Shown here: positions 271-55,216 of the stretch, piece after piece
How positions within the stretch are numbered: the stretch's first letter is position 1
How the letters are laid out: each line of letters starts with the position of its first letter
Assembly: GCA_947085295.1 (NCBI GenBank)
Contig: CAMTVX010000005.1
Span: 2,149 to 66,148 of the forward strand
Length of the DNA stretch: 64,000 nt
Source of the DNA: an uncultured Alphaproteobacteria bacterium
Lineage (GTDB): Bacteria > Pseudomonadota > Alphaproteobacteria > UBA11222
Direction of reading: 5' to 3'
Program-made: the position numbers and the translations under genes
Notes under the pieces: generated by a model
What the model was told of the DNA's origin: nothing
What the model saw: only the letters and a program-made list of their open reading frames with translations
The model's database searches: none

Positions 271-586
271 ATACTTTCTCCAAAATCCTGTGCCCGCATT
301 TTCTGGGGCCGGAACTGGGCGCAGTATGCGTAGATTTTAGCGCAAGTCAATACGCAAAATAAGAATAAATTTCATATATATCAATGACTTAAATATACGG
401 TATTATATTACCACACATATCGTCCGAAATTTTCAACTAACACAACTGTCAAAAATGCCTAATAATTAAGCAGCCGTTAATAACTTAATTTTAACTAATA
501 ATCTTTTACCATGATTGTAGATAGTGCCAATCAAGCGCAGAAAAACAAACCTTCACAACCGCTAGTGAATATAGGGGAGAAATCAC

Positions 587-2767
587 ATGTTGAGTTCATC
601 AGTGACACAATCATGGAAGAATTTATCGATTATCAGAAAAATTCCTATTCTGGTTGTGGCCTCGGTTCTGTTTGCGCTGCTAGGCTCAATGGGCACGAGT
701 GAGTTTGTGAATGGCAAGGCGCTTGATGCGTCGGCAGAAAATAAACTATCCGCATTGAGCGAAACCCGCGCCGAAGCGATTACAGATTATCTCAACAGCA
801 TTCGCGCTGATATTGAATTTCAGGCGGAAAATCCCCTGGTGGTGCAGGCGCTGAAAGATTACACGACAACCTGGCCGCAAATCGGTGCCAATCCGCTTGA
901 ACAATTACAAAAGCTCTATATTCACGATAATCCGAACCCGCTTGGGCAAAAGGAAAATCTGGATTTTGCGCCGGACGGTTCTGCATACAGTAATATGCAT
1001 GCCAAATATCATCCCTGGTTTCGCACTTTCCTGCGCAAACGTGGCTATTATGATATTTTCCTGTTCGATAATGATGGCAACATTGTCTACACAGTATTCA
1101 AGGAGCTGGATTTTTCCACCAATGTAATGAAGGGCAAATGGAAAGATACCGATATTGGTAATGTGTTTCGTGGCGCAACGGCCAGCGCGAACACCATCGA
1201 GAATGGCGTAACCTTTGCCGACTTCAAACCTTACGCGCCCAGTTATGATGTGCCGGCAAGTTTTATTTCCGCCCCCGTATTTGATCAGGATGGCAAAAGA
1301 ATTGGCGCCATCGCCTTCCAGATGCCAATCGCCAATATCAATCGCATCATGCAAAGCACAGCGGGCATGGGAGAGACCGGTGAAAGCTTTATCGCCGGTT
1401 CAGATTTCCTGATGCGCAGCGATACCCGCTTCAGCAAGGAAGGCACCATCCTGAAGCGTAAAATCGAAACTGATCAGGTAAAGGCCGCGTTGGCGGGTGA
1501 AACCGGAGTCACTCTGGGTACAAATTATAATGGCACAGAGGTTCTGGCCGCCTATCGCGGTATTGAATTTCTTGGCGCGCAATTTGCCATTGTTACTGAA
1601 ATGACCGGCGATGAAGTATTTGCCGCCAGCAATTCAGCGCGCAATACGATGATGATCGTTGGCGCTGTTATGTTATTGGTCATGGGTTTTATGGGTCGAA
1701 TTTTGGCGCGCGGTGTTGCGCTTCCTATCGCGCATATGACCAATGGCATGCGACAGCTTGCCGCCGGGAACAGCAATATCGAAATTAAGGGGCTAGATCG
1801 CAAGGATGAAATTGGTGCGATGGCCAACGCCATGACTGTGTTCAAGGAAAACGCCGCCAAGGCCGCCAGTCTGGAGCAGGTAGAGGCGATGGCCGCTGAA
1901 CAGGCCCGTCAGGCCGAGCGTGGCAAGCGAATTGAACAATTATCAGCCAGTTTCCGCACAGACATACGCGTCGTGCTTGATCAGGTTGGTGATGCCGTAA
2001 GTCAGATGCAGGCGGCCGCTCAAAGTATGCATGCATCAACTTCTATCACCCAGGACAAGGCAAACGCGGCCGCCCATGCTGCGGAAGAAGCCTCTAGCAA
2101 TGTTGGTACCGTCGCCACAGCGGCCGAAGAGCTTTCCGCATCCATCTCGGAAATCGCGCGACACATTGCTGTTTCCTCGCAAACATCCGGCCAGGCGATT
2201 GAACAGGCCGGGCATACTTCCGCCACTGTTGGATCTCTTACCTCGATGGCCGAAAAAATTGGCGATGTGGTCAATATGATCCGGGACGTGGCGGAACAGA
2301 CCAACCTGCTAGCGCTCAACGCAACCATCGAGGCGGCGCGCGCGGGTGATGCAGGTAAGGGCTTTGCCGTTGTGGCGTCAGAAGTAAAAAATCTGGCCAA
2401 CCAGACCGCCAAGGCGACAGAAGAAATTGCGCAGCAGATCAGCGCGATGCAGGCCGAAACAGTACGCACCAGCACGTCCATTCAGGATATCACCAGCATC
2501 ATCAACGCCATCAATACGGCGGTAACCACCGTTGCAGCGGCAGTAGAAGAACAGGACGCCGCGACGCGGGAAATTTCGTCGAATGCCCAAAACGTATCGC
2601 AAGGCACTCAGGATGCATCCGCGAACATCGCGCTGGTCACAAGCGCAGCAGCCGAAACTTCTGCTGCTGCAACCCAGACCCTCAGCTCGGTTAAATCCCT
2701 GTCCGAGCAATCCACGCAACTACGCGGCAGCATCGAACAGTTCCTCGATGAACTTGCTGCCGCATAG
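587..2767 (+). CDS. Methyl-accepting chemotaxis protein: periplasmic dCache-like sensor domain, HAMP domain and MCP signalling domain
   Basis: 726-aa ORF with GGGGAG 8 nt upstream of the ATG. An N-terminal TM helix is followed by an approximately 270-aa periplasmic domain, a second TM helix, a HAMP domain, and the highly conserved MCP signalling hairpin motif [31 protein letters not shown]. Confidence 0.85.
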
Positions 2768-2783: not shown

Positions 2784-3383
2784 CTATTTTGCGCCGCGCG
2801 CCGCTGCAAAGCCTGGCCGTTCCAAACAACGGCCAAGCCAGGCAGCGACGTTCGAAACTCCAGACAGATCAAATTTCGCCATCTGCAACCAGGCCAGCAC
2901 ACCCGCGACATTCAGATCCGCAACGCTAAAGCCTGAACCCAGCAGATAGTCCTTGCCCGCCAGTGCGCCGTCCAGCACCTTCAGTGCCGCGCCCAGTTTT
3001 TCAGTGGCCGCCGCTACATCGGCATCCGACGTGCCGGCGGGGTTCATGCGCTTCATCAGAATGGTCAGGGCATGCCCTTCCGCCTCGGTCATCGCCCAGA
3101 AGCTCCATTGCAGGGCGCGTCCCTCATCGGCAATATTTTTGGGTTGCAGCTCGCCGCCGTGTTTTTTTACCAGATAGAGATTACAGGCCAGTGATTCCCA
3201 CAAAATCACACCACCATCATCAATGGCCGGTATATGGCCATTCGGGTTGATTTTCAGAAATTCCGGTGTCCGTGTGCCGGCGGGTGTAATCGGCTCAATT
3301 TTGAAATCAAGTCCCAGCTCCTTTGCGGCCCATATGATGCGCAACGCGCGTGACTGGGCGACCCCGTAAATAGTAAGTGCCAT
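2784..3383 (-). CDS. Glutathione S-transferase family protein
   Basis: 199 aa with a GST N-terminal thioredoxin-like fold (AQSRALRIIWAAKELGLDF...INPNGHIPAIDDGGVILWESLAC) followed by a helical C-terminal domain. Confidence 0.8.
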   Translation of the reverse strand: MALTIYGVAQSRALRIIWAAKELGLDFKIEPITPAGTRTPEFLKINPNGHIPAIDDGGVILWESLACNLYLVKKHGGELQPKNIADEGRALQWSFWAMTEAEGHALTILMKRMNPAGTSDADVAAATEKLGAALKVLDGALAGKDYLLGSGFSVADLNVAGVLAWLQMAKFDLSGVSNVAAWLGRCLERPGFAAARGAK

Positions 3384-3489
3384 GCTACTCTCCCTGCGTT
3401 ATGGACATTCCGTGGCCGGAAGCCCTATTATTCCAGTCCTGCTATTTGATCAGAAAAACACCTATGACACAATGCACAGGCTAGCCCGC

Positions 3490-3972
3490 ATGGAAAATGA
3501 AAATTATCGCGACGAAGATATCGCCCGCATCCTGAAAGCCACCAGGACCATTGCGGTTGTCGGTGCCAGCCCGGAACGCAACCGGCCCAGCTATAGTGTG
3601 ATGCAGTTTCTGCAAAAACGTGGTTTTCGTATTGTGCCTGTAAATCCGCGCGCCAGCGGTGAAATGATTTTGGGCGAAAAAGTCTATGCAAGCCTCGCAG
3701 ACATCCCCTTTCCCATTGACATGGTGGATATTTTTCGCACGTCCGACGCCGCCGGGCAGGTCAGCGACGAGGCGATCGCGATAAAAGCAAAATGCGTCTG
3801 GATGCAATTGGGTGTGCGCAACCCCGCCGCCGCCGAACGCGCCCGCGCCGCCGGACTGCAAGTCGTCATGGATCGTTGCAGCAAAATTGAATATGGACGC
3901 CTGTCCGGACAGATCGGTTTTATGGGCGTGGACACCGGCATCATCAATAATTCACGCCGCCGCCGCGTATAA
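3490..3972 (+). CDS. CoA-binding domain protein (YccU-like)
   Basis: The motif ILKATRTIAVVGASPERNRPSYSVMQFLQKRGFRIVPVNP is typical of CoA-binding Rossmann-fold proteins. The start is uncertain (ATG at 3472 or 3490; the track ORF begins at 3382), and there is no strong SD. Confidence 0.6.
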   Translation: MENENYRDEDIARILKATRTIAVVGASPERNRPSYSVMQFLQKRGFRIVPVNPRASGEMILGEKVYASLADIPFPIDMVDIFRTSDAAGQVSDEAIAIKAKCVWMQLGVRNPAAAERARAAGLQVVMDRCSKIEYGRLSGQIGFMGVDTGIINNSRRRRV

Positions 3973-5257: not shown

Positions 5258-6322
5258 TTATTTTCCAGAAAAGTTGAAATTGGCGCTGGCCTCCCCCTGT
5301 GCCGCTTTCCATAAATCAGCCATCAGAATATCCGCCGCCGCCACGGAATAATGTATTGGATCCCAATAATTGGTGTCCGTCGTCGTAAGTGGACTTTCAA
5401 TTAAAAAATCAGCAACAACCGCGTTTGGAATTTGCGCTGCGATCGCGCCAATACGCTTTTTGCATTCAGCCCACTCGATGGCACTCTGGCTTCCTGGAAC
5501 GGATTGCCGCGCAAAATGATATGGCGCTATGAATAATATTTTTTGGGTTGCAGCGGGAAGCCCTGTCAACATCTCTTGCAGAAGTGGCAATGCAGGATAA
5601 TTTAATGTCGCCGGATCAATCACCGGATCGGCTTTTGCTTCGGCAATTCCGTTTTTGCGTGAAATTGCCAATGCCGCCTGTACCTTGCCAAGATCATATG
5701 CCGCAATATCCGGTAGAAAATTGGTATACCCATCGCGGCCATATTTTAATCGCCGCACGCCCAGCATGGTTCCTGCCTGCCGTCCCGCCTGTTCTATCGT
5801 ATGCAAATCAAACTGATGCAGAAAATCATTATACGGATTATCGTCATACATCCATTCCGGGAACGGTCGTGGCGTGTATTTCTCCAACTCTTCGCCGACC
5901 TTGCACCAGACCAGATCAACGCCCAGTATCACTGCCTTTGCATCGAGATGATGACGGGAAAAAACCTCAAGCAACCGGTATTGCTCATACGCAGTGGCGC
6001 TGTTCATGGACAGATTGACAAAACGCGCGGAAAAAAGTGAATTCAGCGCTTCCGGCCGCAGCAAACGCCCGATGGATGTGCTGATCACCACACTGTCATA
6101 TTCCGTCTTGCGCGCCAGCGCCGGGAATGAAAAGCGCGCGTTGGATGCAATCGGCACGCGATCCAGTGGCGGCGAAAATGGCAGCGTATCAAATGGATCA
6201 ATGATAAAGATCAACAGGTATAAAAATACGCCCAGCCCAATGCCGCCGCCAAAAAACCAGCGGGCAAACCGCGACCAGGCCCCTGCCCCGGCGCCCTCAG
6301 AACTGGAAGTAGATAAATTCAC
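5258..6322 (-). CDS. Single-pass periplasmic protein, probable partner of the upstream MBOAT acyltransferase (AlgJ/AlgX/DltD-like role; family unassigned)
   Basis: 359-aa ORF with one N-terminal TM helix (FFGGGIGLGVFLYLLIFII) and then a soluble domain. It overlaps the MBOAT stop, so the two are likely translationally coupled. A likely GTG start at 6322 is preceded by GGGGGG; the track start at 6337 is also GTG. Confidence 0.45.
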   Translation of the reverse strand: MNLSTSSSEGAGAGAWSRFARWFFGGGIGLGVFLYLLIFIIDPFDTLPFSPPLDRVPIASNARFSFPALARKTEYDSVVISTSIGRLLRPEALNSLFSARFVNLSMNSATAYEQYRLLEVFSRHHLDAKAVILGVDLVWCKVGEELEKYTPRPFPEWMYDDNPYNDFLHQFDLHTIEQAGRQAGTMLGVRRLKYGRDGYTNFLPDIAAYDLGKVQAALAISRKNGIAEAKADPVIDPATLNYPALPLLQEMLTGLPAATQKILFIAPYHFARQSVPGSQSAIEWAECKKRIGAIAAQIPNAVVADFLIESPLTTTDTNYWDPIHYSVAAADILMADLWKAAQGEASANFNFSGK

Positions 6323-7700
6323 TTTGTAACCCCCCACCGATCAGCAGGATTAGAAAAACTGCCGCACCGCCCGCCAGCAATCCCATCGGCCGCCACGGGC
6401 GCAACTGTTGCAGAATGGCCGCCTGGCTGGATGGCCCGCTTAACGCCGCCAGCGTTCCCACCGCCAGCACAACATAATTCAACGTCGTACCGATAACCGC
6501 ACCGCCAAATCCGTTCTGCCCAATCAATGATCCATATATCGACCATGTTGCCGAAAAACTCTCGGTACGGAACAATATCCAGGTCGCGCCGACAAACAGC
6601 GTCATGCACAGCCAACCCAGCAAGGGCGGCATGGAAAACCCGGCGCGGCGCCAAAATATATTTGCCGCAACCCCTGCCCCATGCATCGCACCCCAAACCA
6701 CATAGGTCCAGTTCGCGCCATGCCACAGCCCGCCAACCAGCATGGTCAAAAACATATTGCGCGCCTGATACCATACGCCGCCGCGATTGCCGCCAAGTGG
6801 AATATACACATAGTCACGCAGAAACCGGCTAAGCGTCATATGCCAGCGCCGCCAGAAATCCTGAATACTTGTCGCCATATGTGGGCGATCAAAATTAAAC
6901 GGAATGAAAAATCCAAACATCAGCGCCATGCCAATCGCCATATCCGTATAACCGGAAAAATCAAAATATAGTTGCAACATATAGGCAAGCATTGCCAGCC
7001 ATGCTTCGCCCAGATTCAGCGTGCCCCCCTCAAGCACCCGCTTGAAAAGCGGCGAGCACATGCGCGCAGCGCTATCCGCAATTAAAACTTTTTTCGACAG
7101 GCCCACCAGAAACATAATGCCACCGCGCGACATCCGCTCGCTTAATCCCGCACGCATCGGGTTCAGGTGAAACTGTCCGATAATTTCATTATGCCGTACA
7201 ATCGGCCCGGAAATCAGATGCGGAAAAAATGCCACGAACAAAATATAATCGCGCAGGCCGTGCACGATCACTTCCTCCCCCCTTGCAGCGGCGCGCCGCA
7301 TATCCATCAGATAAGAAATATGCTGAAACGTAAAAAAACTGATCCCAAGCGGCAGGATGATTCCAACCGGTTCATGGCTCCAACCACCAATGGCCGCCAG
7401 ACTGCTGGTCAAAAAATCTGCATATTTGAAAAGCGCGATAACGCCAACATTGAACAGTACACCCGCCAACAGCAACCACTCAAATTGCCGCATGCGCGCA
7501 AAGGCCTGCGCAATCAGCCAATTGCCAAACGTGGAGGCAAGCAGGATCGGCAAAAACCGTATATCCCAATAGCTGTAAAAAATCAGTGACGCGATAACCA
7601 GCGCCCAAAGGCGTAAGGCAACACGCTCCGACAACGCATAATAAATCCCCAGCGAGAGGGGTAAAAACAACAGAATAAAAACTTCTGAATTAAATAACAT
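6297..7700 (-). CDS. MBOAT family membrane-bound O-acyltransferase (AlgI/DltB-like)
   Basis: 467 aa and polytopic, with the conserved MBOAT histidine region ...LVGGLWHGANWTYVVWGAMHG.... The start overlaps the stop of the upstream SDR-like gene. Confidence 0.8.
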   Translation of the reverse strand: MLFNSEVFILLFLPLSLGIYYALSERVALRLWALVIASLIFYSYWDIRFLPILLASTFGNWLIAQAFARMRQFEWLLLAGVLFNVGVIALFKYADFLTSSLAAIGGWSHEPVGIILPLGISFFTFQHISYLMDMRRAAARGEEVIVHGLRDYILFVAFFPHLISGPIVRHNEIIGQFHLNPMRAGLSERMSRGGIMFLVGLSKKVLIADSAARMCSPLFKRVLEGGTLNLGEAWLAMLAYMLQLYFDFSGYTDMAIGMALMFGFFIPFNFDRPHMATSIQDFWRRWHMTLSRFLRDYVYIPLGGNRGGVWYQARNMFLTMLVGGLWHGANWTYVVWGAMHGAGVAANIFWRRAGFSMPPLLGWLCMTLFVGATWILFRTESFSATWSIYGSLIGQNGFGGAVIGTTLNYVVLAVGTLAALSGPSSQAAILQQLRPWRPMGLLAGGAAVFLILLIGGGLQSEFIYFQF

Positions 7701-9930: not shown

Positions 9931-10157
9931 CCAGTAGTGCCGCCAAATTCCTCGGGCAGCGGATCATTAAAATCATCAGGGACAGAAAATTTACCGGCAT
10001 ATAATCCCATAGGCCTATCTCCTAACTGACGTATCGGCACTAATCGCGCCACCGGGGTGCCATCCCTTGCAATGACGACCTCCTCACCCCGGCATGCCCG
10101 CTCAATCAGTTTGGACAACTGTGTTTTGGCTTCATGCATATTTATCGTGATGGTCAT
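9927..10157 (-). CDS. Type II antitoxin, Phd/YefM family
   Basis: 76 aa (MTITINMHEAKTQLSKLIERACRGEEVVIARDGTPVARLVPI), a typical Phd/YefM N-terminal region, and it is coupled to the PIN toxin gene. Confidence 0.75.
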   Translation of the reverse strand: MTITINMHEAKTQLSKLIERACRGEEVVIARDGTPVARLVPIRQLGDRPMGLYAGKFSVPDDFNDPLPEEFGGTTG

Positions 10158-10760: not shown

Positions 10761-11525
10761 ATGAGCCGCCGTAGAAAAGTGTATGAAGGCAAGGCCAAAA
10801 TTCTTTATGAAGGGCCGGAGCCAGGTACGCTCATCCAGTATTTCAAGGATGACGCGACCGCAAACAATGGTAAAAAACACACCACCATTGTAGGCAAGGG
10901 TATCCTGAATAATCGCATCTGCGAGCATATCATGGTGCAGTTGGCGACCATTGGCGTGCCAACCCACTTCATTCGCCGCTTGAATATGCGTGAGCAACTC
11001 ATTCGTGCTGTTGAAATAATTCCACTTGAGGTTGTTGTGCGCAATGTTGCCGCCGGCTCCATCGCATCGCGTCTTGGCATTGAGGAGGGAACGCAGCTCC
11101 CCCGTTCGATCATCGAGTTTTATTACAAAAACGACGCGCTGAACGATCCGCTGGTGTCCGAAGAACATGTCACCGCCTTTGGCTGGGCCACGCCGCATGA
11201 AATTGACGACATCATGGCCATTGCCCTGCGGATCAATGATTTTATGAGCGGACTTTTTGCCGGTGTCGGCATCAAGCTGGTGGATTTCAAAATCGAATTT
11301 GGCCGCATGTATGAAAATGACATGATGCGCATCGTACTGGCCGATGAGATCAGCCCGGATTCGTGTCGGCTGTGGGATATGACGACCAACGAAAAACTGG
11401 ACAAGGACCGTTTCCGCCGCGATATGGGCGGTGTATCGGAAGCCTATCAGGAAGTTGCGCGGCGTCTGGGCATTGCCCCCGATCTGGAAAGCCGCCTGCA
11501 TGCGGTTCCCAAAGTTGTAAATTAA
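10761..11525 (+). CDS. purC: Phosphoribosylaminoimidazole-succinocarboxamide synthase
   Basis: 254 aa ([35 protein letters not shown]...) belonging to the SAICAR synthetase family. Confidence 0.9.
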
Positions 11526-15890: not shown

Positions 15891-15926
15891 ATCGTTTCAT
15901 TATTTGACCGAATCGTCCCACTCCGG

Positions 15927-16061
15927 CGTCATTACGAGGAGCGAAGCGACGTGGCAATCCACCAAGCCTTCGCCAGAAGGCTACGGCTGGCAAAGGAGTC
16001 ACAAACTCAGGTCTTTGCGCGAGACTCTGGATTGCCACGCCTTCGGCTCGCAATGACAACG
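15927..16061. repeat. Nested palindromic intergenic repeat, family 1, copy 1 (135 bp, carries a 43-bp internal insert)
   Basis: Terminal inverted repeats CGTCATTACGAGGAGCGAAGCGACGTGGCAATCC ... GGATTGCCACGCCTTCGGCTCGCAATGACA. The internal module ACCAAGCCTTCGCCAGAAGGCTACGGCTGGCAAAGGAGTCACA is shared with copy 2. Confidence 0.8.
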
Positions 16062-20066: not shown

Positions 20067-22097
20067 CTACTCCGGCTGTTTAAACGACACCACCACAGCG
20101 CCTTCATCCACCTGTTCGCCCGCCGCATAATTCACCTCGGCGACAACGCCGTCGGCGGGGGCTGTCAGTGTGTTTTCCATCTTCATGGCCTCAAGCACCG
20201 CCAGCGGATCGCCCTTCTTCACCGTGTCACCCGCCTTGACATGAACCGAAATCAGCTTGCCAGACATGGGTGCCACGATATCGCCACTGCCACCCTCTTC
20301 CTGTTCCGCATCATGCACCGGATCATACACATCCACGACATGCGCATGGCCCATCAACATCACCGAAATGCGCGCCCCATCTATATTCACCCCGGCAGAA
20401 ATTTTGCGTCCGTCCAGTTCCGCCGTTAATTGACCATCAGCAAGCACTGCCCGCGTATGAAGCTGACTACCCGGTAAATTCAAAATTACGCAGTCTGTCG
20501 CATATTCAACTGTGATGCTGACGTCCGCGCCATTGGACATGAACCGCAAAATCTCGCGCCCCGCCGCATTGGCGCGCCACCCATCGGTGCGGAACCAGGG
20601 CGAATAAGGATCGCCCGATCCGGCCGCCGCCCGGCATGCCCGCTGCCCGCGCACTTGCAGTACGGCCAGACTTGCCAGCGCCAGCACCGTATCGTTCGCC
20701 GCAACGCCATCACTGGCCGGAACCAGTATCGCCAGATGCCGCTCGATAAATCCCGTATCCACATCACCATCGGCAAACGCAGGGTGCACCGCAATGGCGC
20801 GCAAAAAGCTGGCATTGCCCGCCGGGCCTGCGATCTGCACCGCCTCCAGCGCCGCGCATAAGCGCTTGCGCGCCTGGGTGCGATCCACGCCATGCACAAT
20901 CAGTTTGGCGATCATCGGATCATAAAACATCGAAACTTCGTCACCTTCGCGCACGCCGGTATCAATGCGTACGCCATTTTCAGATTCAGGAAAACGCAAA
21001 TGACGCAACTTTCCGGTTGATGGCAAAAACCCGGTCGCCGGATTTTCCGCATACAGACGAACTTCAAACGCATGGCCATTCAATGGAATTTGCGACTGCA
21101 CCAATGGCAGGGTTTCCCCCATCGCCACCCGTAACTGCCACTCCACTAAATCCTGGCCTGTAATCATTTCGGTGACCGGATGCTCCACCTGCAAGCGCGT
21201 GTTCATTTCGATGAAATAGAAACTGTCCTCGCGCAAACCATTCGACGCATCGGCGATAAACTCAACCGTTCCCGCCCCCAGATAACCGATGGCCTTTGCC
21301 GCCTGCACCGCCGCCGCGCCCATTTTCTCGCGCATGGCCAGCGGCATACCGGGGGCCGGGGCTTCCTCGATCACCTTTTGATGGCGGCGCTGAATGGAAC
21401 AATCGCGCTCATATAAATGCACAGCATTGCCGTGGCTGTCGGCGAAAACCTGAATTTCAATATGGCGCGGCTTGGCCATGTAACGTTCGATCAGAACCTT
21501 GTCATCACCAAATGCCGCCTTGGATTCGCGCATGGCAGATTCAAGCGCGCCCGCAAATTCCCCCGCATGATCGACCCGGCGCATGCCGCGCCCACCGCCG
21601 CCCGCAACCGCCTTGATCAAAACCGGAAAGCCGATTTTAACGGCCTGCTCTGCCAGAAACGCCGCATCCTGATTATCACCATGATAGCCCGGCACCACCG
21701 GCACATTGGCTTTTTCCATCAGGCGTTTGGCGGCATCCTTCGCGCCCATCGCGCGCATGGCCGATGCCGGCGGCCCGACAAAGATAATTCCGGCATTCGC
21801 GCAGGCTTCCGCAAACAGTGGATTTTCTGACAGAAATCCATAGCCCGGATGAATAGCCGACGCCCCTGTGCGTTTGGCCGCCGCGATAATCACCGGAATA
21901 TTCAGATAGCTTTCCGCAGCGGGCGACGGGCCAATATGCACCGCGTCATCGGCCATCGTTACATGCAGCGCGCCCGCATCCGCATCCGAATAAACCGCTA
22001 TCGTGCGAATGCCCATGGCGCGCGCTGTACGGATTACACGGCAGGCAATCTCACCGCGATTGGCAATCAGCAGGCTGTCCAGCATCAGCTTTGCCAC
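20067..22097 (-). CDS. Methylcrotonyl-CoA-type acyl-CoA carboxylase alpha subunit (biotin carboxylase + BCCP)
   Basis: 676 aa. The N-terminal biotin carboxylase region (LIANRGEIACRVIRTARAMGIRTIAVYSD) and the C-terminal biotinyl motif EAMKME are both present. Confidence 0.85.
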   Translation of the reverse strand: MAKLMLDSLLIANRGEIACRVIRTARAMGIRTIAVYSDADAGALHVTMADDAVHIGPSPAAESYLNIPVIIAAAKRTGASAIHPGYGFLSENPLFAEACANAGIIFVGPPASAMRAMGAKDAAKRLMEKANVPVVPGYHGDNQDAAFLAEQAVKIGFPVLIKAVAGGGGRGMRRVDHAGEFAGALESAMRESKAAFGDDKVLIERYMAKPRHIEIQVFADSHGNAVHLYERDCSIQRRHQKVIEEAPAPGMPLAMREKMGAAAVQAAKAIGYLGAGTVEFIADASNGLREDSFYFIEMNTRLQVEHPVTEMITGQDLVEWQLRVAMGETLPLVQSQIPLNGHAFEVRLYAENPATGFLPSTGKLRHLRFPESENGVRIDTGVREGDEVSMFYDPMIAKLIVHGVDRTQARKRLCAALEAVQIAGPAGNASFLRAIAVHPAFADGDVDTGFIERHLAILVPASDGVAANDTVLALASLAVLQVRGQRACRAAAGSGDPYSPWFRTDGWRANAAGREILRFMSNGADVSITVEYATDCVILNLPGSQLHTRAVLADGQLTAELDGRKISAGVNIDGARISVMLMGHAHVVDVYDPVHDAEQEEGGSGDIVAPMSGKLISVHVKAGDTVKKGDPLAVLEAMKMENTLTAPADGVVAEVNYAAGEQVDEGAVVVSFKQPE

Positions 22098-22879
22098 CAG
22101 GGTTTGCGTTTGGCCAGAAACGCGCTGGTGCCTTCGCGGCCTTCATCGGTCTGGCGGATTTCGGCAATCATGTTGGCGGTATAATCGATCAACCCCTGAT
22201 CAATTTCGGCATGCGTTACACGGCGCACCAGTTCCTTGGTAATGCGCACCGCGTCCGGCGCCGTCTGGAAAAACTGCGTCACCAGACGTTCTGTTTCATC
22301 AGCCAGCGCATTGCGGTCTTTCACCACCGCATGCAGATAGCCCATGCGATAGGCCTCCTGTGCCGTAAAGCGTTCCCCGCTCAGAAAATAGCGGTGCGCC
22401 ATACGCGCGCCCATGGCTCGAACTACATAAGGCGAGATGGTGGCGGGCGTCAGCCCGATGCGCACTTCCGTCAGTGCAAAGAATACATTCTCACTGGCAA
22501 TCGCCACGTCACAGGCCGACACCAGCCCCATGCCACCCGCAAGTGCCGGACCATGAACAACAGCAATCGTCGGCTTGGGCAACGTGTACAGACGATTTAA
22601 CATCTTGCCCAGTTCCGCCGCTTCGGCCTGATTGGTCGCCTTGTCATATTCCGCCGCCGCGCGCATCCAGGATAAATCGGCGCCCGCTGAAAAACTTGGT
22701 CCATTGCCTTCCAGCAACACCACCCGCACCCCATCGGCCCCGCGCAGGGTTTCAAAAATATCCGACAGGCGCTCAATCACATCAGGGTTAAAGGCATTAT
22801 GCACATCGGGACGGTTTAGCGTCACCACCGCCACGCCTTCACGGGTGGTGTTTAGCAATACGACATCTTCTTCGGACAT
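22085..22879 (-). CDS. Enoyl-CoA hydratase/isomerase family (methylglutaconyl-CoA hydratase-like)
   Basis: 264 aa with the crotonase fold (VVTLNRPDVHNAFN...). Confidence 0.8.
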   Translation of the reverse strand: MSEEDVVLLNTTREGVAVVTLNRPDVHNAFNPDVIERLSDIFETLRGADGVRVVLLEGNGPSFSAGADLSWMRAAAEYDKATNQAEAAELGKMLNRLYTLPKPTIAVVHGPALAGGMGLVSACDVAIASENVFFALTEVRIGLTPATISPYVVRAMGARMAHRYFLSGERFTAQEAYRMGYLHAVVKDRNALADETERLVTQFFQTAPDAVRITKELVRRVTHAEIDQGLIDYTANMIAEIRQTDEGREGTSAFLAKRKPWWQS

Positions 22880-22937
22880 TTTATTCTCTCCTGGAGGGCG
22901 TTGCGTTTTTATCGAACCCTAAAAAATCATTTTCCCG

Positions 22938-23032
22938 TCACCCCACCCCAACCCCTCCCCATAAAGGGGAGGGGCTTACCGCCGGGATATAATCTTCTCC
23001 CTCCCCCTCGTGGGGAGGGCCGGGGTGGGGGG
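22938..23032. repeat. G/C-rich nested palindromic repeat, family 2, copy A (intercistronic between the mccB and hydratase genes)
   Basis: CCCCACCCCAACCCCTCCCCATAAAGGGGAGGGGCTTACC...CTCCCTCCCCCTCGTGGGGAGGGCCGGGGTGGGGGG. A second copy lies at 55074-55206. Confidence 0.75.
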
Positions 23033-23089
23033 CAAAGAATAAAAAGCTTCCTTCACTAAAACCCCACCCTCATATTCTATTCTTCCGCG

Positions 23090-24697
23090 TTACATCCGGA
23101 ATATGCCGAATTTCGTGTCGCGCTGCGGCGCATTTTGCGTAATCGACAGGCTTAGTCCCAGCACCATACGTGTATCCTGCGGCGCAATAATGCCATCATC
23201 CCACAATCGCGCGGTGGCGTAATAGGGATGTCCTTCTTCTTCATAACGCGCGCGCACCGGCGCCTTGAATTCGGCCTCTTCCTCCGCGCTCCAGCTTTGT
23301 CCGGCGGCTTCCATACCCTCACGCCGCACTGTCGCCAGCACGCTTGCCGCCTGCTCGCCGCCCATTACCGAGATGCGCGCATTGGGCCACATATACAAAA
23401 AGCGCGGGCGATAGGCGCGACCACACATGCCATAATTCCCCGCACCGTACGATCCGCCAATCACCACCGTAAATTTTGGCACGGCGGCGGTGGCAACAGC
23501 CGTCACCAGTTTCGCGCCATCCTTGGCGATGCCGCCTGCTTCATATTTGCGGCCCACCATGAAGCCGGAAATATTCTGCAAAAATACCAGCGGAATATTT
23601 CTCTGTGCGCACAGTTCAATAAAATGCGCGCCCTTCACTGCGGATTCCGAAAACAGAATGCCGTTATTGGCCAGAATGCCCACCGGATAGCCATGAATAT
23701 GCGCAAAGCCGGTAATCAAAGTCGTGCCGTACAGCTTTTTGAATTCGTCAAACTCGCTGCCATCCACAATGCGCGCAATCACTTCGCGCACATCATATTG
23801 CGCCTGTGCATTGGCGGGAATAACACCGTTCAGTTCCGCTGGATCAAAAGCCGGTTCGCGCGGCGGCTGCACCGCCAGCCTCGCCTGTTTGTGGCGATTG
23901 AGATTGCCGACAATCCGACGCGCCAGCGACAGCGCATGCATGTCATTCATGGCGTAATGATCGGTCACGCCGCTGATGCGCGAATGCACATCCGCGCCGC
24001 CCAGATCTTCTGCCGAAACAATTTCACCGGTCGCCGCCTTCACCAGCGGCGGCCCACCCAGAAAAATCGTGCCCTGATTGCGCACGATAATGCTTTCATC
24101 GCTCATTGCCGGGACATAGGCGCCGCCCGCCGTGCACGACCCCATCACCACGGCAATCTGTGGAATGCCGATCGCCGACATATTGGCCTGATTATAAAAT
24201 ATCTGCCCGAAATGATTGCGGTCAGGAAAAATTTCCGCCTGATTGGGCAGGTTCGCCCCACCGCTATCCACCAGATAAATGCACGGCAGATGGTTTTCCA
24301 TCGCCACTTCCTGGGCGCGCAAATGTTTCTTCACCGTGATCGGATAATAGGTGCCGCCCTTGATCGTGGCGTCATTGCAGACAATCACGCATTCCTGCCC
24401 GGCCACGCGGCCAACACCGGTTAGAATGCCCGCGCCGTGAATATCGTCGTCATACATGCCATAGGCGGCAAGCTGGCTGAATTCCAGAAATGGCGCACCC
24501 GGATCAATCAGATTTTCAATCCGGTCACGCGGCAGCAGCTTGCCGCGCGCCACATGGCGTTCACGCGATTTCGCATTGCCGCCAAGCGACGTGACCGCCA
24601 CCTTGGTGCGCAAATCCGCCACCAGCGCCTCCATATGCGCGGCGTTTTTCTTGAACGCTTCGCCGCGCGTATTAATAATACTGGAAAGCACGGCCAT
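23090..24697 (-). CDS. Methylcrotonyl-CoA-type carboxylase beta subunit (carboxyltransferase)
   Basis: 535 aa. The N-terminal region ([30 protein letters not shown]...[27 protein letters not shown]) has the pattern of MccB/LiuB-type carboxyltransferases. Confidence 0.85.
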
Positions 24698-26959: not shown

Positions 26960-27082
26960 GTCATTGCGCGCGAAGCGTGGCAATCCACCAAGCCTTCGCC
27001 AGAAGGCTACGGCTGGCAAAGGAGTCACACGGATAGGCCTTCGCGTACGGCTCTGGATCGCCACGCTTCGCTCGCGATGACG
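26960..27082. repeat. Nested palindromic intergenic repeat, family 1, copy 2 (123 bp, with the 43-bp insert)
   Basis: GTCATTGCGCGCGAAGCGTGGCAATCC + shared insert ... GGATCGCCACGCTTCGCTCGCGATGACG. Confidence 0.8.
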
Positions 27083-27125
27083 ATAAAGGATATGACTGCA
27101 TCTAAAAAAACACCACGCCATAAAC

Positions 27126-28740: not shown

Positions 28741-28766
28741 AATATAATGGACCCATTTTCCTCCGA

Positions 28767-28862
28767 CGTCATTGCGAGGAGCGAAGCGACGCGGCAATCC
28801 AGAGTCTCACGCAAAGGCCTGAGTTTGTGACTCTGGATTGCCGCGCTTCGCTCGCAATGACG
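28767..28862. repeat. Nested palindromic intergenic repeat, family 1, copy 3 (96 bp, no insert, core in inverted orientation)
   Basis: CGTCATTGCGAGGAGCGAAGCGACGCGGCAATCCAGAGTC...GACTCTGGATTGCCGCGCTTCGCTCGCAATGACG. Confidence 0.8.
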
Positions 28863-28911
28863 ATTAAGGATATGAACAGACCTATAATCACCATGCGCTA
28901 GTATAACATCT

Positions 28912-43319: not shown

Positions 43320-44579
43320 ATGCTTAAATTTGGCAATAAAAAATCTACCGCTCAACAAGCCGCAGCAGCAGAGGCCGCTACAGACAGGGTAAACCTCGAA
43401 CATTTTACGGCGGTAGTGAATGCCCTACCCGTAAGTGTCATGGTTCTGAACCTGCAGGATGCGACGATTAAATATGTAAACCCCTATGGCCTCGAGGCAA
43501 TGCGCCTTGTGCGCGCGGGCCTTCCGGCTAATTTCAGTACGGAACAGATGGTTGGGCAGAAAATTGATTTCTTGCAGACCAAACCTGCCTTGACAGCCTC
43601 TTTCCTGTCCGATCCGTCAAACTTCCCTGTCGAAGTGGAAAGCAAGGTAGGCACCGATGTCGTTAGGCTAAAGCTGGCGTCGATGCGCGATGCCGCCGGA
43701 AAACATAACGGTGTCATCCTTACCTGGCGTATTGTCAGCCGCAATCTTCAGGCCATAGCTGATTTTCGTAAGAAACTGCATGACTCTCTGGCTGAAGTAT
43801 CCGACGCCACACTGGACATTATGACAGCGGCAGGCCAGGTCAGTGGGCTGTCTCAGAAGTCCAACACCCAGGTCGAGCATGCCCGCCACAGCGCCATTGA
43901 AACATCGACCAATGTGCAGACCGTGGCCAGCGCCGCTGAAGAGCTGTCCAGTTCCATCATTGAAATTTCACGGCAGGTTGCAGAATCCTCGCGCATTTCC
44001 CAGGAAGCCGTGCTTGAAGCTGATCGTACCAATGCGACCGTGCAGGGCCTGGCGCAAAGCTCTGACAAGATCGGTGAAGTGGTCAATCTCATTCAGGATA
44101 TTGCCAGCCAGACCAATCTGCTGGCGCTGAACGCCACCATTGAAGCGGCCCGCGCAGGCGAAGCCGGCAAAGGCTTTGCCGTGGTTGCCTCGGAAGTAAA
44201 AAATCTGGCCAACCAGACCGCCAAGGCGACCGAAGAAATCGCTGCCCAGATCAATGAAATCCAGGCCAGCACGAGCGGCGCCGTAAAAGCCATTCAGGGT
44301 ATCGGCAAAACCATTCACCAGATCAGTGAAATTACCTCCGCAATCGCTGCCGCCGTCGAAGAGCAGGGGGCCGCAACAAGCGAGATCAGCCGCAGCGCCC
44401 AACAGGCCGCAGGTGGCACCGAAGCGCTGACCGGTGATGTGGAAACCCTATCCTCCGCAGCCATTGAAACAGGCAAAGCAGCGACCGGCGTTTCTGACGC
44501 TGGTGAGGCGCTGAAAACCAGCACACAAAAGACACGCGATGAAATCGAAAAGCTGTTGAGCGAAATCGCCAAAGCCTAG
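43320..44579 (+). CDS. Soluble (no TM helix) chemoreceptor: PAS-like sensor domain + MCP signalling domain
   Basis: A GAGGG SD lies before ATG 43320 (MLKFGNKK). The signalling hairpin [42 protein letters not shown] is almost identical to that of the 587-2767 MCP. Confidence 0.8.
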
Positions 44580-44640: not shown

Positions 44641-44865
44641 AATAACAGTGAAGCCGCCACCGCGGTTGGAGTGTACAAACCCCCGGGCGCCTGTTGCTAC
44701 AGGTGGGCGCCATATATCCCAGACCACGATCCGGGACAGGGACAGCTCCCTTCGGGTGGTTTAAGGCCCCTGGGTATGTGGTCTCCTGACCAACGGGGCA
44801 GCCTCATTAATGAGTATACCACAGATCGACCTTAAATGGCCGGTTTTTTCCTAAACCAGCCTGAT

Positions 44866-44961
44866 GACTTTCTTTCGTCATTGCGAGCGAAGCGCGGCAA
44901 TCCAGAGTCCCACGCGAAGACCTGAGTTTGTGACTCTGGATTGCCGCGTCGCTACGCTCCT
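44866..44961. repeat. Nested palindromic intergenic repeat, family 1, copy 4 (96 bp)
   Basis: CGTCATTGCGAGCGAAGCGCGGCAATCCAGAGTC...GACTCTGGATTGCCGCGTCGCTACGCTCCTCGCAATGACG. Confidence 0.8.
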
Positions 44962-52881: not shown

Positions 52882-53020
52882 GTCGCCAGACTATCCGAAA
52901 ATAGCCTTATTTTCTAAGCCCGATTTTCTGCCCCTGTTTTAGCGCCATTGAAAGGCCGCAATGCACCGGATAATGTCCCAATAAAGGGAGTCTCTCCTGA
53001 ATAGGGATTCGCCAGCCCAT

Positions 53021-53096
53021 TAGACCGACAAATGTCCCTTAGACCTACAAATGCCCCTTAGACCTACAAATGCCCCTTAGACCTACAAATGAAAGG
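53021..53096. repeat. Tandem direct repeat array, 19-bp unit TAGACCTACAAATGCCCCT x about 4
   Basis: The units are 53021-53039 (TAGACCGACAAATGTCCCT), 53040-53058, 53059-77 (the middle two identical) and 53078-53096 (degenerate at its 3' end). Confidence 0.85.
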
Positions 53097-53110
53097 CACA
53101 GTGCCGAACG

Positions 53111-53251
53111 ATGTCAAAGCTGCTTGGTTCCATACTGGTTTTGCTCGTCGCCATATTTATCGGCGGAGCGATTTATATTTCAATCTGGGACGTGCCACCA
53201 CCGGTGCGCACTGTCGAGAAAGTCTTGCCGGATGAAATGCTGGGCAAGTAA
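53111..53251 (+). CDS. Candidate small membrane protein (46 aa), not in the ORF track
   Basis: ATG 53111 to TAA 53249-53251 encodes MSKLLGSILVLLVAIFIGGAIYISIWDVPPPVRTVEKVLPDEMLGK, one clean TM helix. It starts 14 bp after the tandem repeat array and overlaps the start of the next gene by 20 nt. Confidence 0.3.
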   Translation: MSKLLGSILVLLVAIFIGGAIYISIWDVPPPVRTVEKVLPDEMLGK

Positions 53252-55016
53252 CCGCAGTCGGCATATCGCATTTTTCTCCGGTTTTCTTGGTGTTGCGGTT
53301 GTTGCTCTTGCGCATGGCATCGCACAGGCACAGGCCCCGATACCGCTTCGTCCACCATCTGAACTGGCGCCTGCCACACCTCTGCCCCCTGTCACTGAGG
53401 AATATCCCGCCGAAACTGAAAATGACGGCATCAGCACGGGTGCGCTTGGGCAACTGGATTTTGCTTCTGTCGGGATACTGACGGCTGACAGTGGCGGCTT
53501 TGGGCCACAGACATGGCAAGGTGCGGATCGCGCCCTGGTGGAGCGTCTGCTGCCAAAATTACCGGTTACGACACACTCCCCCACCCTGCAAAAGCTGATG
53601 CGGCGACTATTGCTCAGCACCGCCGAACCGCCACAGGGAACCAGTACCGGCGCATCCTTCATTGGTTTGCGTCTTGAGCGGCTGATAAAGGCCGGACACT
53701 TTGAACAGGCTGCACAGATGTCCGCACTGGCGGGTGGCCCCACCAGGGACGAAGCCCTGTTACAGGCACGTGCCGAAATTGCGCTGGCATCTAACGAATT
53801 CAAACAGGCCTGTGATATGGCCGCAGCACAGGTTCGCGCCAGCGAGGCTGTCTTCTGGCTGAAACTCACCGGGTTTTGCCAGATCATCAATGGCGATGAG
53901 GCCGCAACGCAATTGACCGCATCCCTGGTCGCCGAACAGGAACCGGACGATACCGGATATCAACGTCTGCTGGCTGCGCTGATCAGCAAATCCGGCAGGC
54001 TGCCAGAAAATCTGCCGCATCTGGACATCCTGCAATTAGCGATGATCCGATTTGCATCACTACCACTGCCAGAAAAAATTGACGATCATGCTGCACCCGC
54101 TGTTTTGAAATTGATGGCGCGCATGCCCGGCGCATCGGTGCAACAACGCCTGCCCGCCGCCGAACGCGCCGAGGCCGCAGGCGCAATAGGCCCGCAAGAG
54201 GTGGCCCAGCTTTACTCTGAAATGCCCTTCACCGTGGAAGATCGCGCCGGGGCCGCTGAACTGGCGACAACACTGCCCCCCGCCCAGGCCAACGCCTTGC
54301 TGTTCCAGTCCGTGCGCGGACAGGATTCCACCGCCGGCCTGACACTTGCGCTATCCGCTGCATGGCGGCTTGCCCGCGCCAGCAACAGTTTTGCAACCGT
54401 TTCCCGTGTCAATCTGACCCCCATACGCGATCTGGTTCCCGCGCCGGAAATGATCGAAATTGCCGCTGAAGCCGGTCGCGCATTGCTGCTGGCGGGCGAT
54501 CCTTTGGCCGCGACTCGCTGGTATGATCTGGCCCGCGCATTAAGCATTCCCGGCAACAATCCCGCCGCAACGCGCGCCAAAAATGACCTGTGGCCGTTGT
54601 TGCGGCTGGCGCAACCTGTTGCGGGCATACCAGAGGATCCTCTCGAAATCACCGCCTGGCTGGCGCAATTATCGCCAGAGGATAAAACCCGCAAGGGGCC
54701 TATCCTGCTCTCCGCCATGTCGGCGCTGGATATGGCCACACCGGAGTCCGAATGGGTCGCCATGGCGCAGGATACCAAAAAAACCGATGCGGCTGCGATG
54801 CCGCCAGCGGCGTTGCTGCATCTGCTGATGGAAGCCAGCCAGAGCGGGCGCGTCGGGCAAACCGTTTTGTTAAGCCTTGCCTGTCTGGGCGAAAATGGCG
54901 CGGGCCTGACGGACCCGTTATTGCTGGGAATTACCGTGCGCGCGCTCAACACCGTTGGTTTGCAGACAGAAGCCCGCGCACTAGCGCTGGAGGCGGCGTT
55001 GCAGGCTGGGATTTAG
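53232..55016 (+). CDS. Secreted Ala/Leu-rich helical protein of unknown function (signal peptide; about 594 aa)
   Basis: An internal ATG at 53232 gives the signal peptide MKCWASNRSRHIAFFSGFLGVAVVALAHGIAQAQA; the track's 54 upstream codons are probably not translated. The rest is predicted largely alpha-helical and repeat-like. It lies between aroK and xerD. Confidence 0.5.
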   Translation: MKCWASNRSRHIAFFSGFLGVAVVALAHGIAQAQAPIPLRPPSELAPATPLPPVTEEYPAETENDGISTGALGQLDFASVGILTADSGGFGPQTWQGADRALVERLLPKLPVTTHSPTLQKLMRRLLLSTAEPPQGTSTGASFIGLRLERLIKAGHFEQAAQMSALAGGPTRDEALLQARAEIALASNEFKQACDMAAAQVRASEAVFWLKLTGFCQIINGDEAATQLTASLVAEQEPDDTGYQRLLAALISKSGRLPENLPHLDILQLAMIRFASLPLPEKIDDHAAPAVLKLMARMPGASVQQRLPAAERAEAAGAIGPQEVAQLYSEMPFTVEDRAGAAELATTLPPAQANALLFQSVRGQDSTAGLTLALSAAWRLARASNSFATVSRVNLTPIRDLVPAPEMIEIAAEAGRALLLAGDPLAATRWYDLARALSIPGNNPAATRAKNDLWPLLRLAQPVAGIPEDPLEITAWLAQLSPEDKTRKGPILLSAMSALDMATPESEWVAMAQDTKKTDAAAMPPAALLHLLMEASQSGRVGQTVLLSLACLGENGAGLTDPLLLGITVRALNTVGLQTEARALALEAALQAGI

Positions 55017-55073
55017 AATATGTTTTTCCCGGATTTAATGGAGTGCGATATTTTTCCCACTCTGCTCTTATTT

Positions 55074-55206
55074 CTCCACCCCACCCCAACCCCTCCCCAT
55101 CAGAGGGGAGGGGCTTTACCACCGCGTTCTGATCTTCTTCTCCCTCCCCCTCTCGCCAAGCGAAGCTTTGGCGTAGCTTTGTGCGGGGAGGGCCGGGGTG
55201 GGGGGA
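55074..55206. repeat. G/C-rich nested palindromic repeat, family 2, copy B (with a 32-bp insert)
   Basis: CTCCACCCCACCCCAACCCCTCCCCATCAGAGGGGAGGGGCTTTACC...CTCCCTCCCCCTC[TCGCCAAGCGAAGCTTTGGCGTAGCTTTGTGC]GGGGAGGGCCGGGGTGGGGGG. It ends 10 bp before the xerD start. Confidence 0.75.
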
Positions 55207-55216
55207 GAATGAGCAC

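Follow-up and report, generated by a model that had tools for sequence, protein, structure and literature searches.

The window, by which we mean the whole stretch of 64,000 nucleotides analysed here, comes from an uncultured alphaproteobacterium of the UBA11222 lineage. It holds two copies of a G/C-rich nested palindrome, one (copy A) inside a carboxylase operon between an mccB-like gene and a hydratase gene, and the other (copy B) directly upstream of xerD. It is probable, in our view, that both copies are small extragenic palindromic repeats, either of the repetitive extragenic palindromic (REP)/REPIN kind or of the miniature inverted-repeat transposable element (MITE) kind, that they belong to a dispersed family and were inserted recently, and that they do not represent a conserved regulator of the operon, any effect on the mRNA being a by-product. 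Judged by comparison with relatives, both copies are lineage-specific insertions, because the corresponding gaps in the relatives are short (31 nt in the operon and 15 nt upstream of xerD). Two oversized intergenic gaps of the window are explained as insertions of small palindromic repeats, and the copy within the operon should not be taken for an ancestral regulator.

Two insertions into short gaps

The gap between mccB and the hydratase gene measures 210 nt in the window and 31 nt in all of the sampled relatives except one lineage. The short gap was found in L001, L002 and L127-L131, whose mccB proteins are 96-97% identical to that of the window, in L132 (93%) and in L133 and L134 (90%). The exception is L003-L006 (94%), four contigs from different samples that have identical gaps of 176 nt. 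Their gap contains an element of the same architecture, which is a different copy: GACCCCCTCCCAACCTCCCCC-TTTCA-GGGGGAGGAGGG...CCTCCCTCTCCC-TGAAA-GGGAGAGGGA-T-GGGGAGAGGGTC. Compared with the empty sites, the whole insertion of copy A extends from 22893 to 23079, and its 187 nt replaced about 8 nt of the ancestral 31-nt gap; 10 nt after the stop codon and 13 nt with the hydratase Shine-Dalgarno sequence were kept. In front of xerD, the window has a gap of 200 nt, and L256/L257 and L260/L261 (xerD identity of 93% and 87%, respectively) have one of 15 nt; comparison with this ancestral 15-nt gap places the insertion approximately at 55040-55216. The lineage of L258/L259, with 91% xerD identity, has a 124-nt gap (5877-6000) that contains an unrelated small palindrome, CGTCATTGTCACGGCGCG..CGCGCCTCACAATGAGG. 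Evidently, to judge from these alignments, small palindromic elements have landed more than once in these short gaps. About 80 kb sampled from the clade with the 31-nt gap (L001/L002/L127/L256) were free of the family, compared to three copies in the 21.6 kb of L003 and two in the 64 kb of the window, and sister lineages seem to differ strongly in copy number.

The core of copy A, delimited by repeat counts and folding, is a nested palindrome of 92-95 nt (22939-23032). It lies within the 210-nt gap bordered by the stop codon of the carboxyltransferase gene (23090-23092, minus strand) and the ATG of the hydratase gene (22877-22879), and in this respect the sequence and coordinates agree with the original prediction. 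On the plus strand, positions 22941-23032 read CCCCACCCC-AA-CCCCTCCCC-ATAAA-GGGGAGGGG-(22 nt)-CTCCCTCCCCC-TCGT-GGGGAGGG-CC-GGGGTGGGGGG. The parts are a C-run lead, CCCCACCCC (22941-22949), hairpin 1 with the loop ATAAA (22952-22974), a spacer of 22 nt (22975-22996), hairpin 2 with the loop TCGT (22997-23019) and a G-run tail, GGGGTGGGGGG (23022-23032). The termini of the core are inverted repeats, in that the 5' end CCCCACCCCAACCCCTCCCC matches the reverse-complemented 3' end, CCCCACCCCGGCCCTCCCC. Beside the core, a pyrimidine/T-rich stretch (AATCATTTTCCCGTCA, 22925-22940) is common to copy A, copy B, L224 and the copy L003a when these are compared by eye. On the lead side, the copies of the window lineage stay alike for another 12-15 nt or so (ATCATTTTYCYC.CA), to the left of the start first assigned to the element, and the stretch at 22925-22940 probably belongs to the repeat unit. 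Among these, L224 is closely related to copy B. Inside the insertion of copy A there is also a lone lead-like motif without a hairpin, CCCCACCCTCA (23062-23072), which may be a relic of another unit; the same lead variant stands before a full hairpin in L021.

The second copy that had been predicted directly upstream of xerD is present as a core of 127 nt (55079-55205), with termini identical to those of copy A. It consists of a C-run lead (55079-55087), hairpin 1 (55090-55113), a spacer (55114-55139), the two arms of hairpin 2 (55140-55150 and 55185-55192) and a G-run tail (55195-55205). The loop of hairpin 2 is a replacement of 34 nt (55151-55184) where copy A has 4 nt, and it is itself a small hairpin (CGCCAA..TTGGCG, 55154-55173). 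The xerD gene (55217-56134, plus strand) begins 11 nt after the end of copy B. GGAGA in the terminal G-run (55204-55208), 8 nt ahead of the xerD ATG, probably serves as the Shine-Dalgarno sequence of this gene, and according to the predicted fold the outer stem of copy B would sequester this ribosome-binding site. An ORF (open reading frame) finder placed the start of xerD at a GTG (55181) inside copy B; orthologs point to the ATG at 55217, and the GTG start is probably spurious.

Strong hairpin potential had been predicted for the element, and we found it on both strands, the folds being far better than those of shuffled controls as RNA and as DNA. The RNA folding energies were -69.9 and -67.7 kcal/mol (z = -4.1 and -4.5), with 0 of 200 shuffles equal, and the DNA folds of both copies ranged from -30 to -36 kcal/mol (z = -3.2 to -3.7). 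There are two alternative folds. In one of them the lead pairs with the tail and the C-arm of hairpin 1 with the G-arm of hairpin 2, so as to form a long interrupted hairpin; in the other, an outer stem closes two local hairpins in a three-way junction.

The sequence is of low complexity and the source contig was assembled from a metagenome, and the two copies might be seen as a chance likeness of G/C-rich sequence or as an assembly artefact. However, the terminal 19-20-mers each occur exactly twice in the window, compared to 0.03-0.04 times expected from shuffles, copies A and B share a collinear architecture over at least 92 nt, and this architecture turns up again in independently assembled contigs as well as in finished genomes of cultured bacteria. 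Because of the recurrence in finished genomes, chance or artefact has a negligible probability and is already refuted.

Structure, distribution and placement of the unit

Copies were collected by pattern scans. One genome per species was searched with the 5' terminus, CCCCACCCC-N2-3-CCCCTCCCC, which gave at least 120 loci; metagenomes were searched with the 3' terminus, which again gave at least 120 loci; and two scans of viral contigs with the terminal motifs gave at least 120 and 41 loci. With so many further copies in other genomes, metagenomes and viral contigs, the repeat family that had been proposed from two copies is real. When the copies from the scans were read, the recurrent entity proved to be a unit of about 38 nt and not the element of 95 nt. 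The unit consists of a C-run lead (CCCC[A/T]CCCC), 2-3 nt, and a hairpin, CCCCTCCCC-loop-GGGG(G)AGGGG with a loop of 4-8 nt, which in the window takes the form CCCCTCCCC-loop-GGGGAGGGG after the unpaired lead. On the opposite strand, the hairpin comes first and is followed by CC-GGGGTGGGGG, the G-run tail. Each element of the window is made of two such units, inverted to each other as a doublet and with their leads pointing outward.

Singlets are common. Among 149 leads, 113 continue into a hairpin, and these represent 102 singlets, which lack the closing arm, and 11 doublets, in a sample that was chosen by a terminal motif and is biased in this respect, so that it is no genome census. We compiled 15 non-redundant inverted doublets, namely the window copies and 13 others, all of them stably folding. 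In several rhizobial doublets the loops are exact reverse complements of each other (ACAA/TTGT, GCAA/TTGC, TCAA/TTGA), and for this reason they are true inverted duplications of one unit. In the window copies, the loops of the two halves have diverged. Clusters exist as well as singlets and doublets, since in three arrays of L200 the unit is repeated head to tail about every 44 nt (1926-2010, 9995-10125 and 10932-11020). At the same loci we also collected 43 hairpins independently of the scan patterns. By the strict pattern, 11 of them carry only the lead, 13 only the tail and none both; the other 19 have neither, about 8 of these with a near-miss. Because hairpins found outside the scan patterns still carry a lead or tail on one side, the lead is an intrinsic part of the unit.

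The named hosts among the species-scan matches listed are mostly Alphaproteobacteria, including Sphingomonas, Novosphingobium, Mesorhizobium, Bradyrhizobium and Rhodopseudomonas, as well as Hyphomicrobium, Methylobacterium, Devosia, Hoeflea and Phenylobacterium. Chloroflexota, Cyanobacteria, Bacteroidota and Clostridia are also among the matches listed, with the same lead-plus-hairpin form, and the G+C content of the contigs with units varies from 0.38 to 0.76. Both terminal motifs are also common in the viral or proviral contigs of IMG/VR (L264-L424, G+C content of 0.32-0.73), where the G-arm comes after the lead in 122 of 194 cases. The unit may be spread by phages, or these regions of the viral contigs may be derived from hosts. 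The identical 19-20-mers across phyla and viral contigs could result from horizontal spread or from convergence of a very low-complexity design, two possibilities that samples selected by pattern do not separate. In an annotated collection of plasmids and chromids, the window element matched 83 replicons and a singlet from Sinorhizobium meliloti matched 145. The matched replicons belong mainly to Sinorhizobium and Rhizobium, and also to Sphingomonas, Shinella and Azospirillum. One S. meliloti replicon of 3.7 Mb has 29 unit places, compared to 8-13 in those of S. fredii and Shinella and 2-4 in those of pSymB size. S. meliloti has a doublet of the same architecture between two co-directional genes, and a near-full doublet was found in Rhizobium sp. 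BG4.

The placement relative to genes, evaluated with a gene call based on the G+C content of third codon positions at loci with a G+C content of at least 0.58, is typical of REP-type repeats: the units lie 3' of genes, are tolerated in operons and are kept out of promoters. Only 61 of 213 units overlap predicted genes, compared to 78% coding sequence (P = 2e-52). The 75 gaps that bear an element comprise 48 co-directional, 24 convergent and 3 divergent ones, and the 3 divergent gaps contrast with a share of 23-26% among the other gaps of the same loci (P = 7e-6 to 7e-7). The strand carried by the mRNA in co-directional gaps is divided 24 to 19, with 50:50 expected (P = 0.54), so there is no strand bias. 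In the annotated replicons, the matches to the unit never fall under an annotated gene, and all five copies of the window lineage are intergenic.

There are exceptions inside genes. In L107, an ORF of 579 aa that resembles cobyric acid synthase (CobQ; 276-2015, plus strand) contains two units, near 1092 and 1637, through which the reading frame continues (PPLPAPLPPPVGEGAGVGG and SPNPSPTGGGRGTGRG). In L229, a unit with about 85% G+C (6303-6324) is read through in frame as EISPSLSGRAGVGLTPK, directly before the DPACGSGSF motif of a methyltransferase. Because this unit sits in a contig with 38% G+C, the L229 sequence argues for the insertion of foreign DNA into a coding gene. Such cases matter for annotation, in which related units are translated as proline/glycine-rich stretches, just as the GTG start of xerD at 55181 falls inside the window element.

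Possible consequences for the operon mRNA

The family matches of the genes around copy A are consistent with a catabolic operon of the methylcrotonyl-CoA-carboxylase type. On the minus strand, the mccB-like carboxyltransferase gene (23090-24697), which is preceded by a thiolase gene, lies upstream of copy A. Downstream of it are a crotonase-type enoyl-CoA hydratase gene (22085-22879) and an mccA-like gene for biotin carboxylase/biotin carboxyl carrier protein (20067-22097), which overlaps the end of the hydratase gene. A BT_MCC_alpha domain is on record in relatives of the operon. The carboxyltransferase of the window is 100% identical to a protein of one 67-kb NCBI contig and 86-97% identical to proteins from metagenomes and metagenome-assembled genomes (MAGs); among named organisms, the closest (Pyruvatibacter, Sneathiella and others) reach about 77%. 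Exact-protein look-ups of the hydratase and mccB of the window gave no record. An identity of the repeat with the Brucella Bru-RS, which the G+C content and the other repeat family had suggested, was dropped, given an uncultured alphaproteobacterial lineage whose named relatives are about 77% identical in mccB.

Copy A is most probably co-transcribed within the operon, because the scan found no promoter-like site in the insert, the hydratase gene has kept its own Shine-Dalgarno sequence (AGGAGAG) and start codon despite the insertion, and its overlap with mccA is intact. We suggest that the units spread at the DNA level, probably by means of an enzyme that recognises the folded single strand, and that copies would persist where they are harmless. 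A very stable stem-loop in a polycistronic mRNA could slow down 3'-to-5' exonucleases or offer a site to a double-strand-specific RNase. By analogy with REPs, of which an effect on expression within operons was reportedly described by Newbury in 1987, it would modestly uncouple the level of mccB from those of the hydratase gene and mccA. Differential mRNA stability is therefore reasonable by this analogy as a by-product, and we regard it as no more than that because close relatives run the operon without the element.

The original prediction went further and saw regulatory design in the placement inside the operon. According to this explanation, the element would be an evolved cis-regulatory RNA, such as a partial terminator, an attenuator or an mRNA stabiliser, which sets the ratio of mccB to hydratase/mccA. 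The element is indeed located in a co-directional and tightly packed operon and its RNA fold reaches about -67 to -70 kcal/mol, a similar element has become fixed in this gap of a second lineage, with no difference among four contigs from different samples, and the copy in L003 is followed by TTTTTT after 2 nt. Effects of REP elements on relative expression within operons are, moreover, cited in PMC2873474. However, most close relatives have the same operon with a 31-nt gap and no element, and a copy is also found in the unrelated context upstream of xerD. Scans of both strands called no intrinsic terminator at the element, be it in the window or in L003, the T6 run of the window lying 16 nt past the stem, and the identification of the element as such a terminator was dropped. 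The family shows no bias of strand relative to transcription (24 compared to 19), and at gathering thresholds Rfam gave no match on the element, only sub-threshold hairpins of miRNA precursors with at most 29 bits against thresholds of at least 65. Regulatory design is not supported by these observations, and we consider an evolved cis-regulatory RNA unlikely.

A G-quadruplex or i-motif had also been proposed. Each strand has four G-tracts with loops of 1-2 nt at its 3' end, and the canonical G-quadruplex motif (four tracts of at least 3, loops of 1-7 nt) is present as GGGGAGGGGTTGGGGTGGGG on the minus strand and as GGGGAGGGCCGGGGTGGGGGG on the plus strand; the G4Hunter score peaks at about 2.4-2.5. 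When G-quadruplex energies were included in ViennaRNA, an approximate model, the minus strand of copy A, which is the mRNA strand, was predicted to form a four-tetrad G-quadruplex in GGGGAGGGGUUGGGGUGGGG (-71.6 compared to -66.6 kcal/mol). The G-quadruplex was also preferred on the minus strand of copy B (-85.3 compared to -76.4), and the isolated arm GGGGAGGGGUUGGGGUGGGG scored -45.7. In the same model, the hairpin still wins on the plus strand of copy A and on the strand of copy B that is carried by the xerD mRNA. The proposal holds to the extent that canonical motifs exist; among the mRNA strands, a G-quadruplex is thermodynamically plausible by this prediction only on that of copy A.

Could the element act through such a structure, or through a switch from hairpin to G-quadruplex, for example by cation-dependent stalling of ribosomes, RNases or polymerases? 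The four G-tracts on each strand, the high G4Hunter values and the G-quadruplexes predicted on the minus strands of copies A and B are in line with it, as is the unpaired G-tail that singlets keep and that completes four G-tracts. However, the hairpin is favoured on two of the strands considered, by an energy model that is approximate. In addition, the complementary C-arm is made first and is adjacent to the G-arm, so the kinetics would favour the hairpin. The explanation is further weakened because a function of RNA G-quadruplexes predicts a strand bias, of which the family shows none. We consider such a mode of action very improbable, and an insertion of a REP-like or MITE-like repeat with a by-product effect on the mRNA remains our preferred interpretation.

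Relation to known repeats and other features of the window

The element looks and works like a REP/REPIN or a MITE, and we do not file it as a RAYT-REP, that is, as a REP of the REP-associated tyrosine transposase (RAYT). It is of an ordinary kind, although its distribution is unusually broad. As in REPs and REPINs, the latter being defined as REP doublets that form hairpins (PMC3116915), the unit is short and imperfectly palindromic, has an asymmetric part outside the palindrome and occurs in singlets, inverted doublets and clusters. The unit of about 38 nt is repeated (two copies, as doublets, in the 64-kb window, three copies in the 21.6 kb of L003, 29 places in the S. meliloti replicon) and extragenic (61 of 213 units in genes compared to 78% coding). 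It occurs 3' of genes and in operons, avoids divergent promoter gaps and is polymorphic in its insertion between close lineages; by analogy with REPs, it would be transcribed with the neighbouring genes. The terminal inverted repeats agree with a MITE. There are also differences. REPINs are marked by an excess of doublets over singlets; in the sample taken by a terminal motif, which is biased, singlets far outnumber doublets (102 compared to 11). The copies in rhizobial replicons number tens and not hundreds, and the 19-20-mers of the unit span several phyla and viral contigs, unlike REPs, which are usually lineage-specific. No GTAG or CGTC was found at the boundary of the unit, whose asymmetric part is the C-run lead CCCC[A/T]CCCC; such a tetranucleotide 5' of the REP palindrome was reportedly described by Di Nocera in 2013 and by Messing in 2012.

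Several observations weigh against an interpretation as recent insertions of a REP-like or MITE-like repeat. In length, the insertions (187 nt and about 177 nt) far exceed the cores (92 and 127 nt), at copy A by a factor of about two, and this excess is not accounted for by simple cut-and-paste of the core. The likeness of the extra A/T-rich flanks between the copies is not above that of shuffled controls. No target-site duplication could be defined against the empty sites, as the boundaries are imprecise and there is no clear direct repeat. The copy count of the source organism rests on a single MAG contig of 67 kb. When all ORFs in 1.79 Mb of sampled loci were searched by phmmer with the E. 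coli RayT, no RAYT was flanked by C/G-run units, nor was a RAYT found in a further 1.35 Mb of viral loci around units; a mobilising enzyme was not found at the sampled loci. Finally, on a neighbour-joining mccB tree, (L133/134, (L132, (L003/4, ((L001, L002, L127), window)))), two gains tie with one gain and one precise loss by event count, and parsimony was given up as the means of deciding between one and two gains. The inserts of the window and L003 align equally well in either orientation, the C/G-run arms and T-runs matching and the spacers and loops differing, so that at the sequence level their likeness is one of family and not of orthology. Because orthology-level similarity is missing between the inserts, two independent gains are favoured, though not proven, for the mccB-hydratase gap.

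By eye, copy A seemed to have an outer inverted repeat, and the conserved mobile unit seemed to be longer (TGGAG.GCG...TTTTT, at a distance of 40-50 nt from the core). The longer unit and the outer repeat were rejected, with 325 and 88 of 2000 shuffles, respectively, being as good. TA flanks two rhizobial doublets, and the other doublets lack it. The only strong RAYT homolog in the 1.79 Mb is in L045 (E = 8e-52), a contig of a Xanthobacteraceae MAG, where the RAYT gene (2960-3493, minus strand) is flanked on both sides by a GTAG-tagged REP, GTAGGGCGCGCAAAATCGCCC (2800-3720); the C/G-run unit lies 1.9 kb from this RAYT-REP pair. L229 has a weak match to RayT 3.9 kb from its unit. An association of the unit with RAYT was dropped, the L045 gene being flanked by GTAG REPs and the L229 match being weak and distant. 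By inspection only, we saw no transposase-like ORF between the inward-facing units 0.9 kb apart in L107 and L116. No parent insertion sequence (IS) with matching ends was seen in the sampled loci, for which no IS-database or whole-genome search was made.

Small palindromic insertions are known from other bacteria. The Correia elements of Neisseria and the ERIC/IRU elements of Enterobacteria are about 100-150 nt long, have terminal inverted repeats and occur between co-transcribed genes, where they form long mRNA stem-loops, and effects on processing and stability have been reported for them. The window element is similar in length, in its terminal inverted repeats and in its insertion between co-transcribed genes. 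It differs in that there is no sequence relationship and that it consists of two copies of a smaller, autonomous-looking unit that is also found alone. With the Rickettsia palindromic elements it shares the presence of units in frame inside likely real genes (L107 and L229); in contrast to them, the window copies are intergenic, sequence similarity is absent and the in-frame cases are exceptional. The GGGNATC repeats of Xanthomonas and Nostoc, which form G-quadruplexes, are microsatellites of tandem heptamers that prefer four tracts, are enriched between co-directional genes and near gene ends and are transcribed (PMC4692102). They have no complementary C-arm, unlike the window element, a palindrome with paired G-tracts, and the G-quadruplex repeats of Rehm 2015, being tandem GGGNATC heptamers, were dropped as a different kind.

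The intergenic repeats of rhizobia (the RIMEs, the Sm-repeats and the A/B/C palindromic motifs) occur in the same hosts as the unit, which lies between genes of S. meliloti, S. fredii and Rhizobium replicons. The REP elements of S. meliloti are reported to be transcribed and of obscure function (PMC2873474; PMC2573895). The unit may be one of the named RIMEs, Sm-repeats or A/B/C motifs, in which case the family has already been catalogued in S. meliloti by another name. A literature search with the motif string gave only unrelated eukaryotic and G-quadruplex papers. The unit is present and unannotated in model rhizobia and sphingomonads, and S. meliloti, with its many finished genomes and its genetics, would permit direct tests of movement and of effects on operons.

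A bolder view would be that of a REP-like superfamily independent of RAYT, which is common to Alphaproteobacteria, Chloroflexota, Cyanobacteria and Bacteroidota, is moved by an unrecognised enzyme or by phages, can land in frame inside genes and carries a switch between hairpin and G-quadruplex. The unit would then be a structured mobile element that crosses phyla and may act as a nucleic-acid switch, and not one more lineage-specific REP. We regard this as distinctly unlikely. If it were true that the unit lacks a RAYT partner and shares its ancestry across phyla, the known spread of REP-like DNA would be widened.

The window has other features of its own. A further palindromic family, presumably the first one of the original prediction, with motifs such as CGYGGCAATCCAGAGTC...GACTCTGGATTGCCRCG and GTCATTGCGAGGAGCGAAGCGACG, occurs at 15921-16040, 26976-27095, 28761-28875 and 44893-44948, and several of its copies are found between genes of the same neighbourhood. 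A 19-nt unit, GYCCMTTAGACCKACAAAT, is repeated four times in tandem at 53015-53090, where the array overlaps the start of a 648-aa ORF (53070-55016), the orthologs of which are without a Pfam match. The sole Rfam match in the window is 6S RNA (SsrS, RF00013) at 44647-44807 on the minus strand, with 76.5 bits. A pair of direct repeats of 204 nt that are 78% identical (2252-2455 and 44064-44267) stands 41.8 kb apart.

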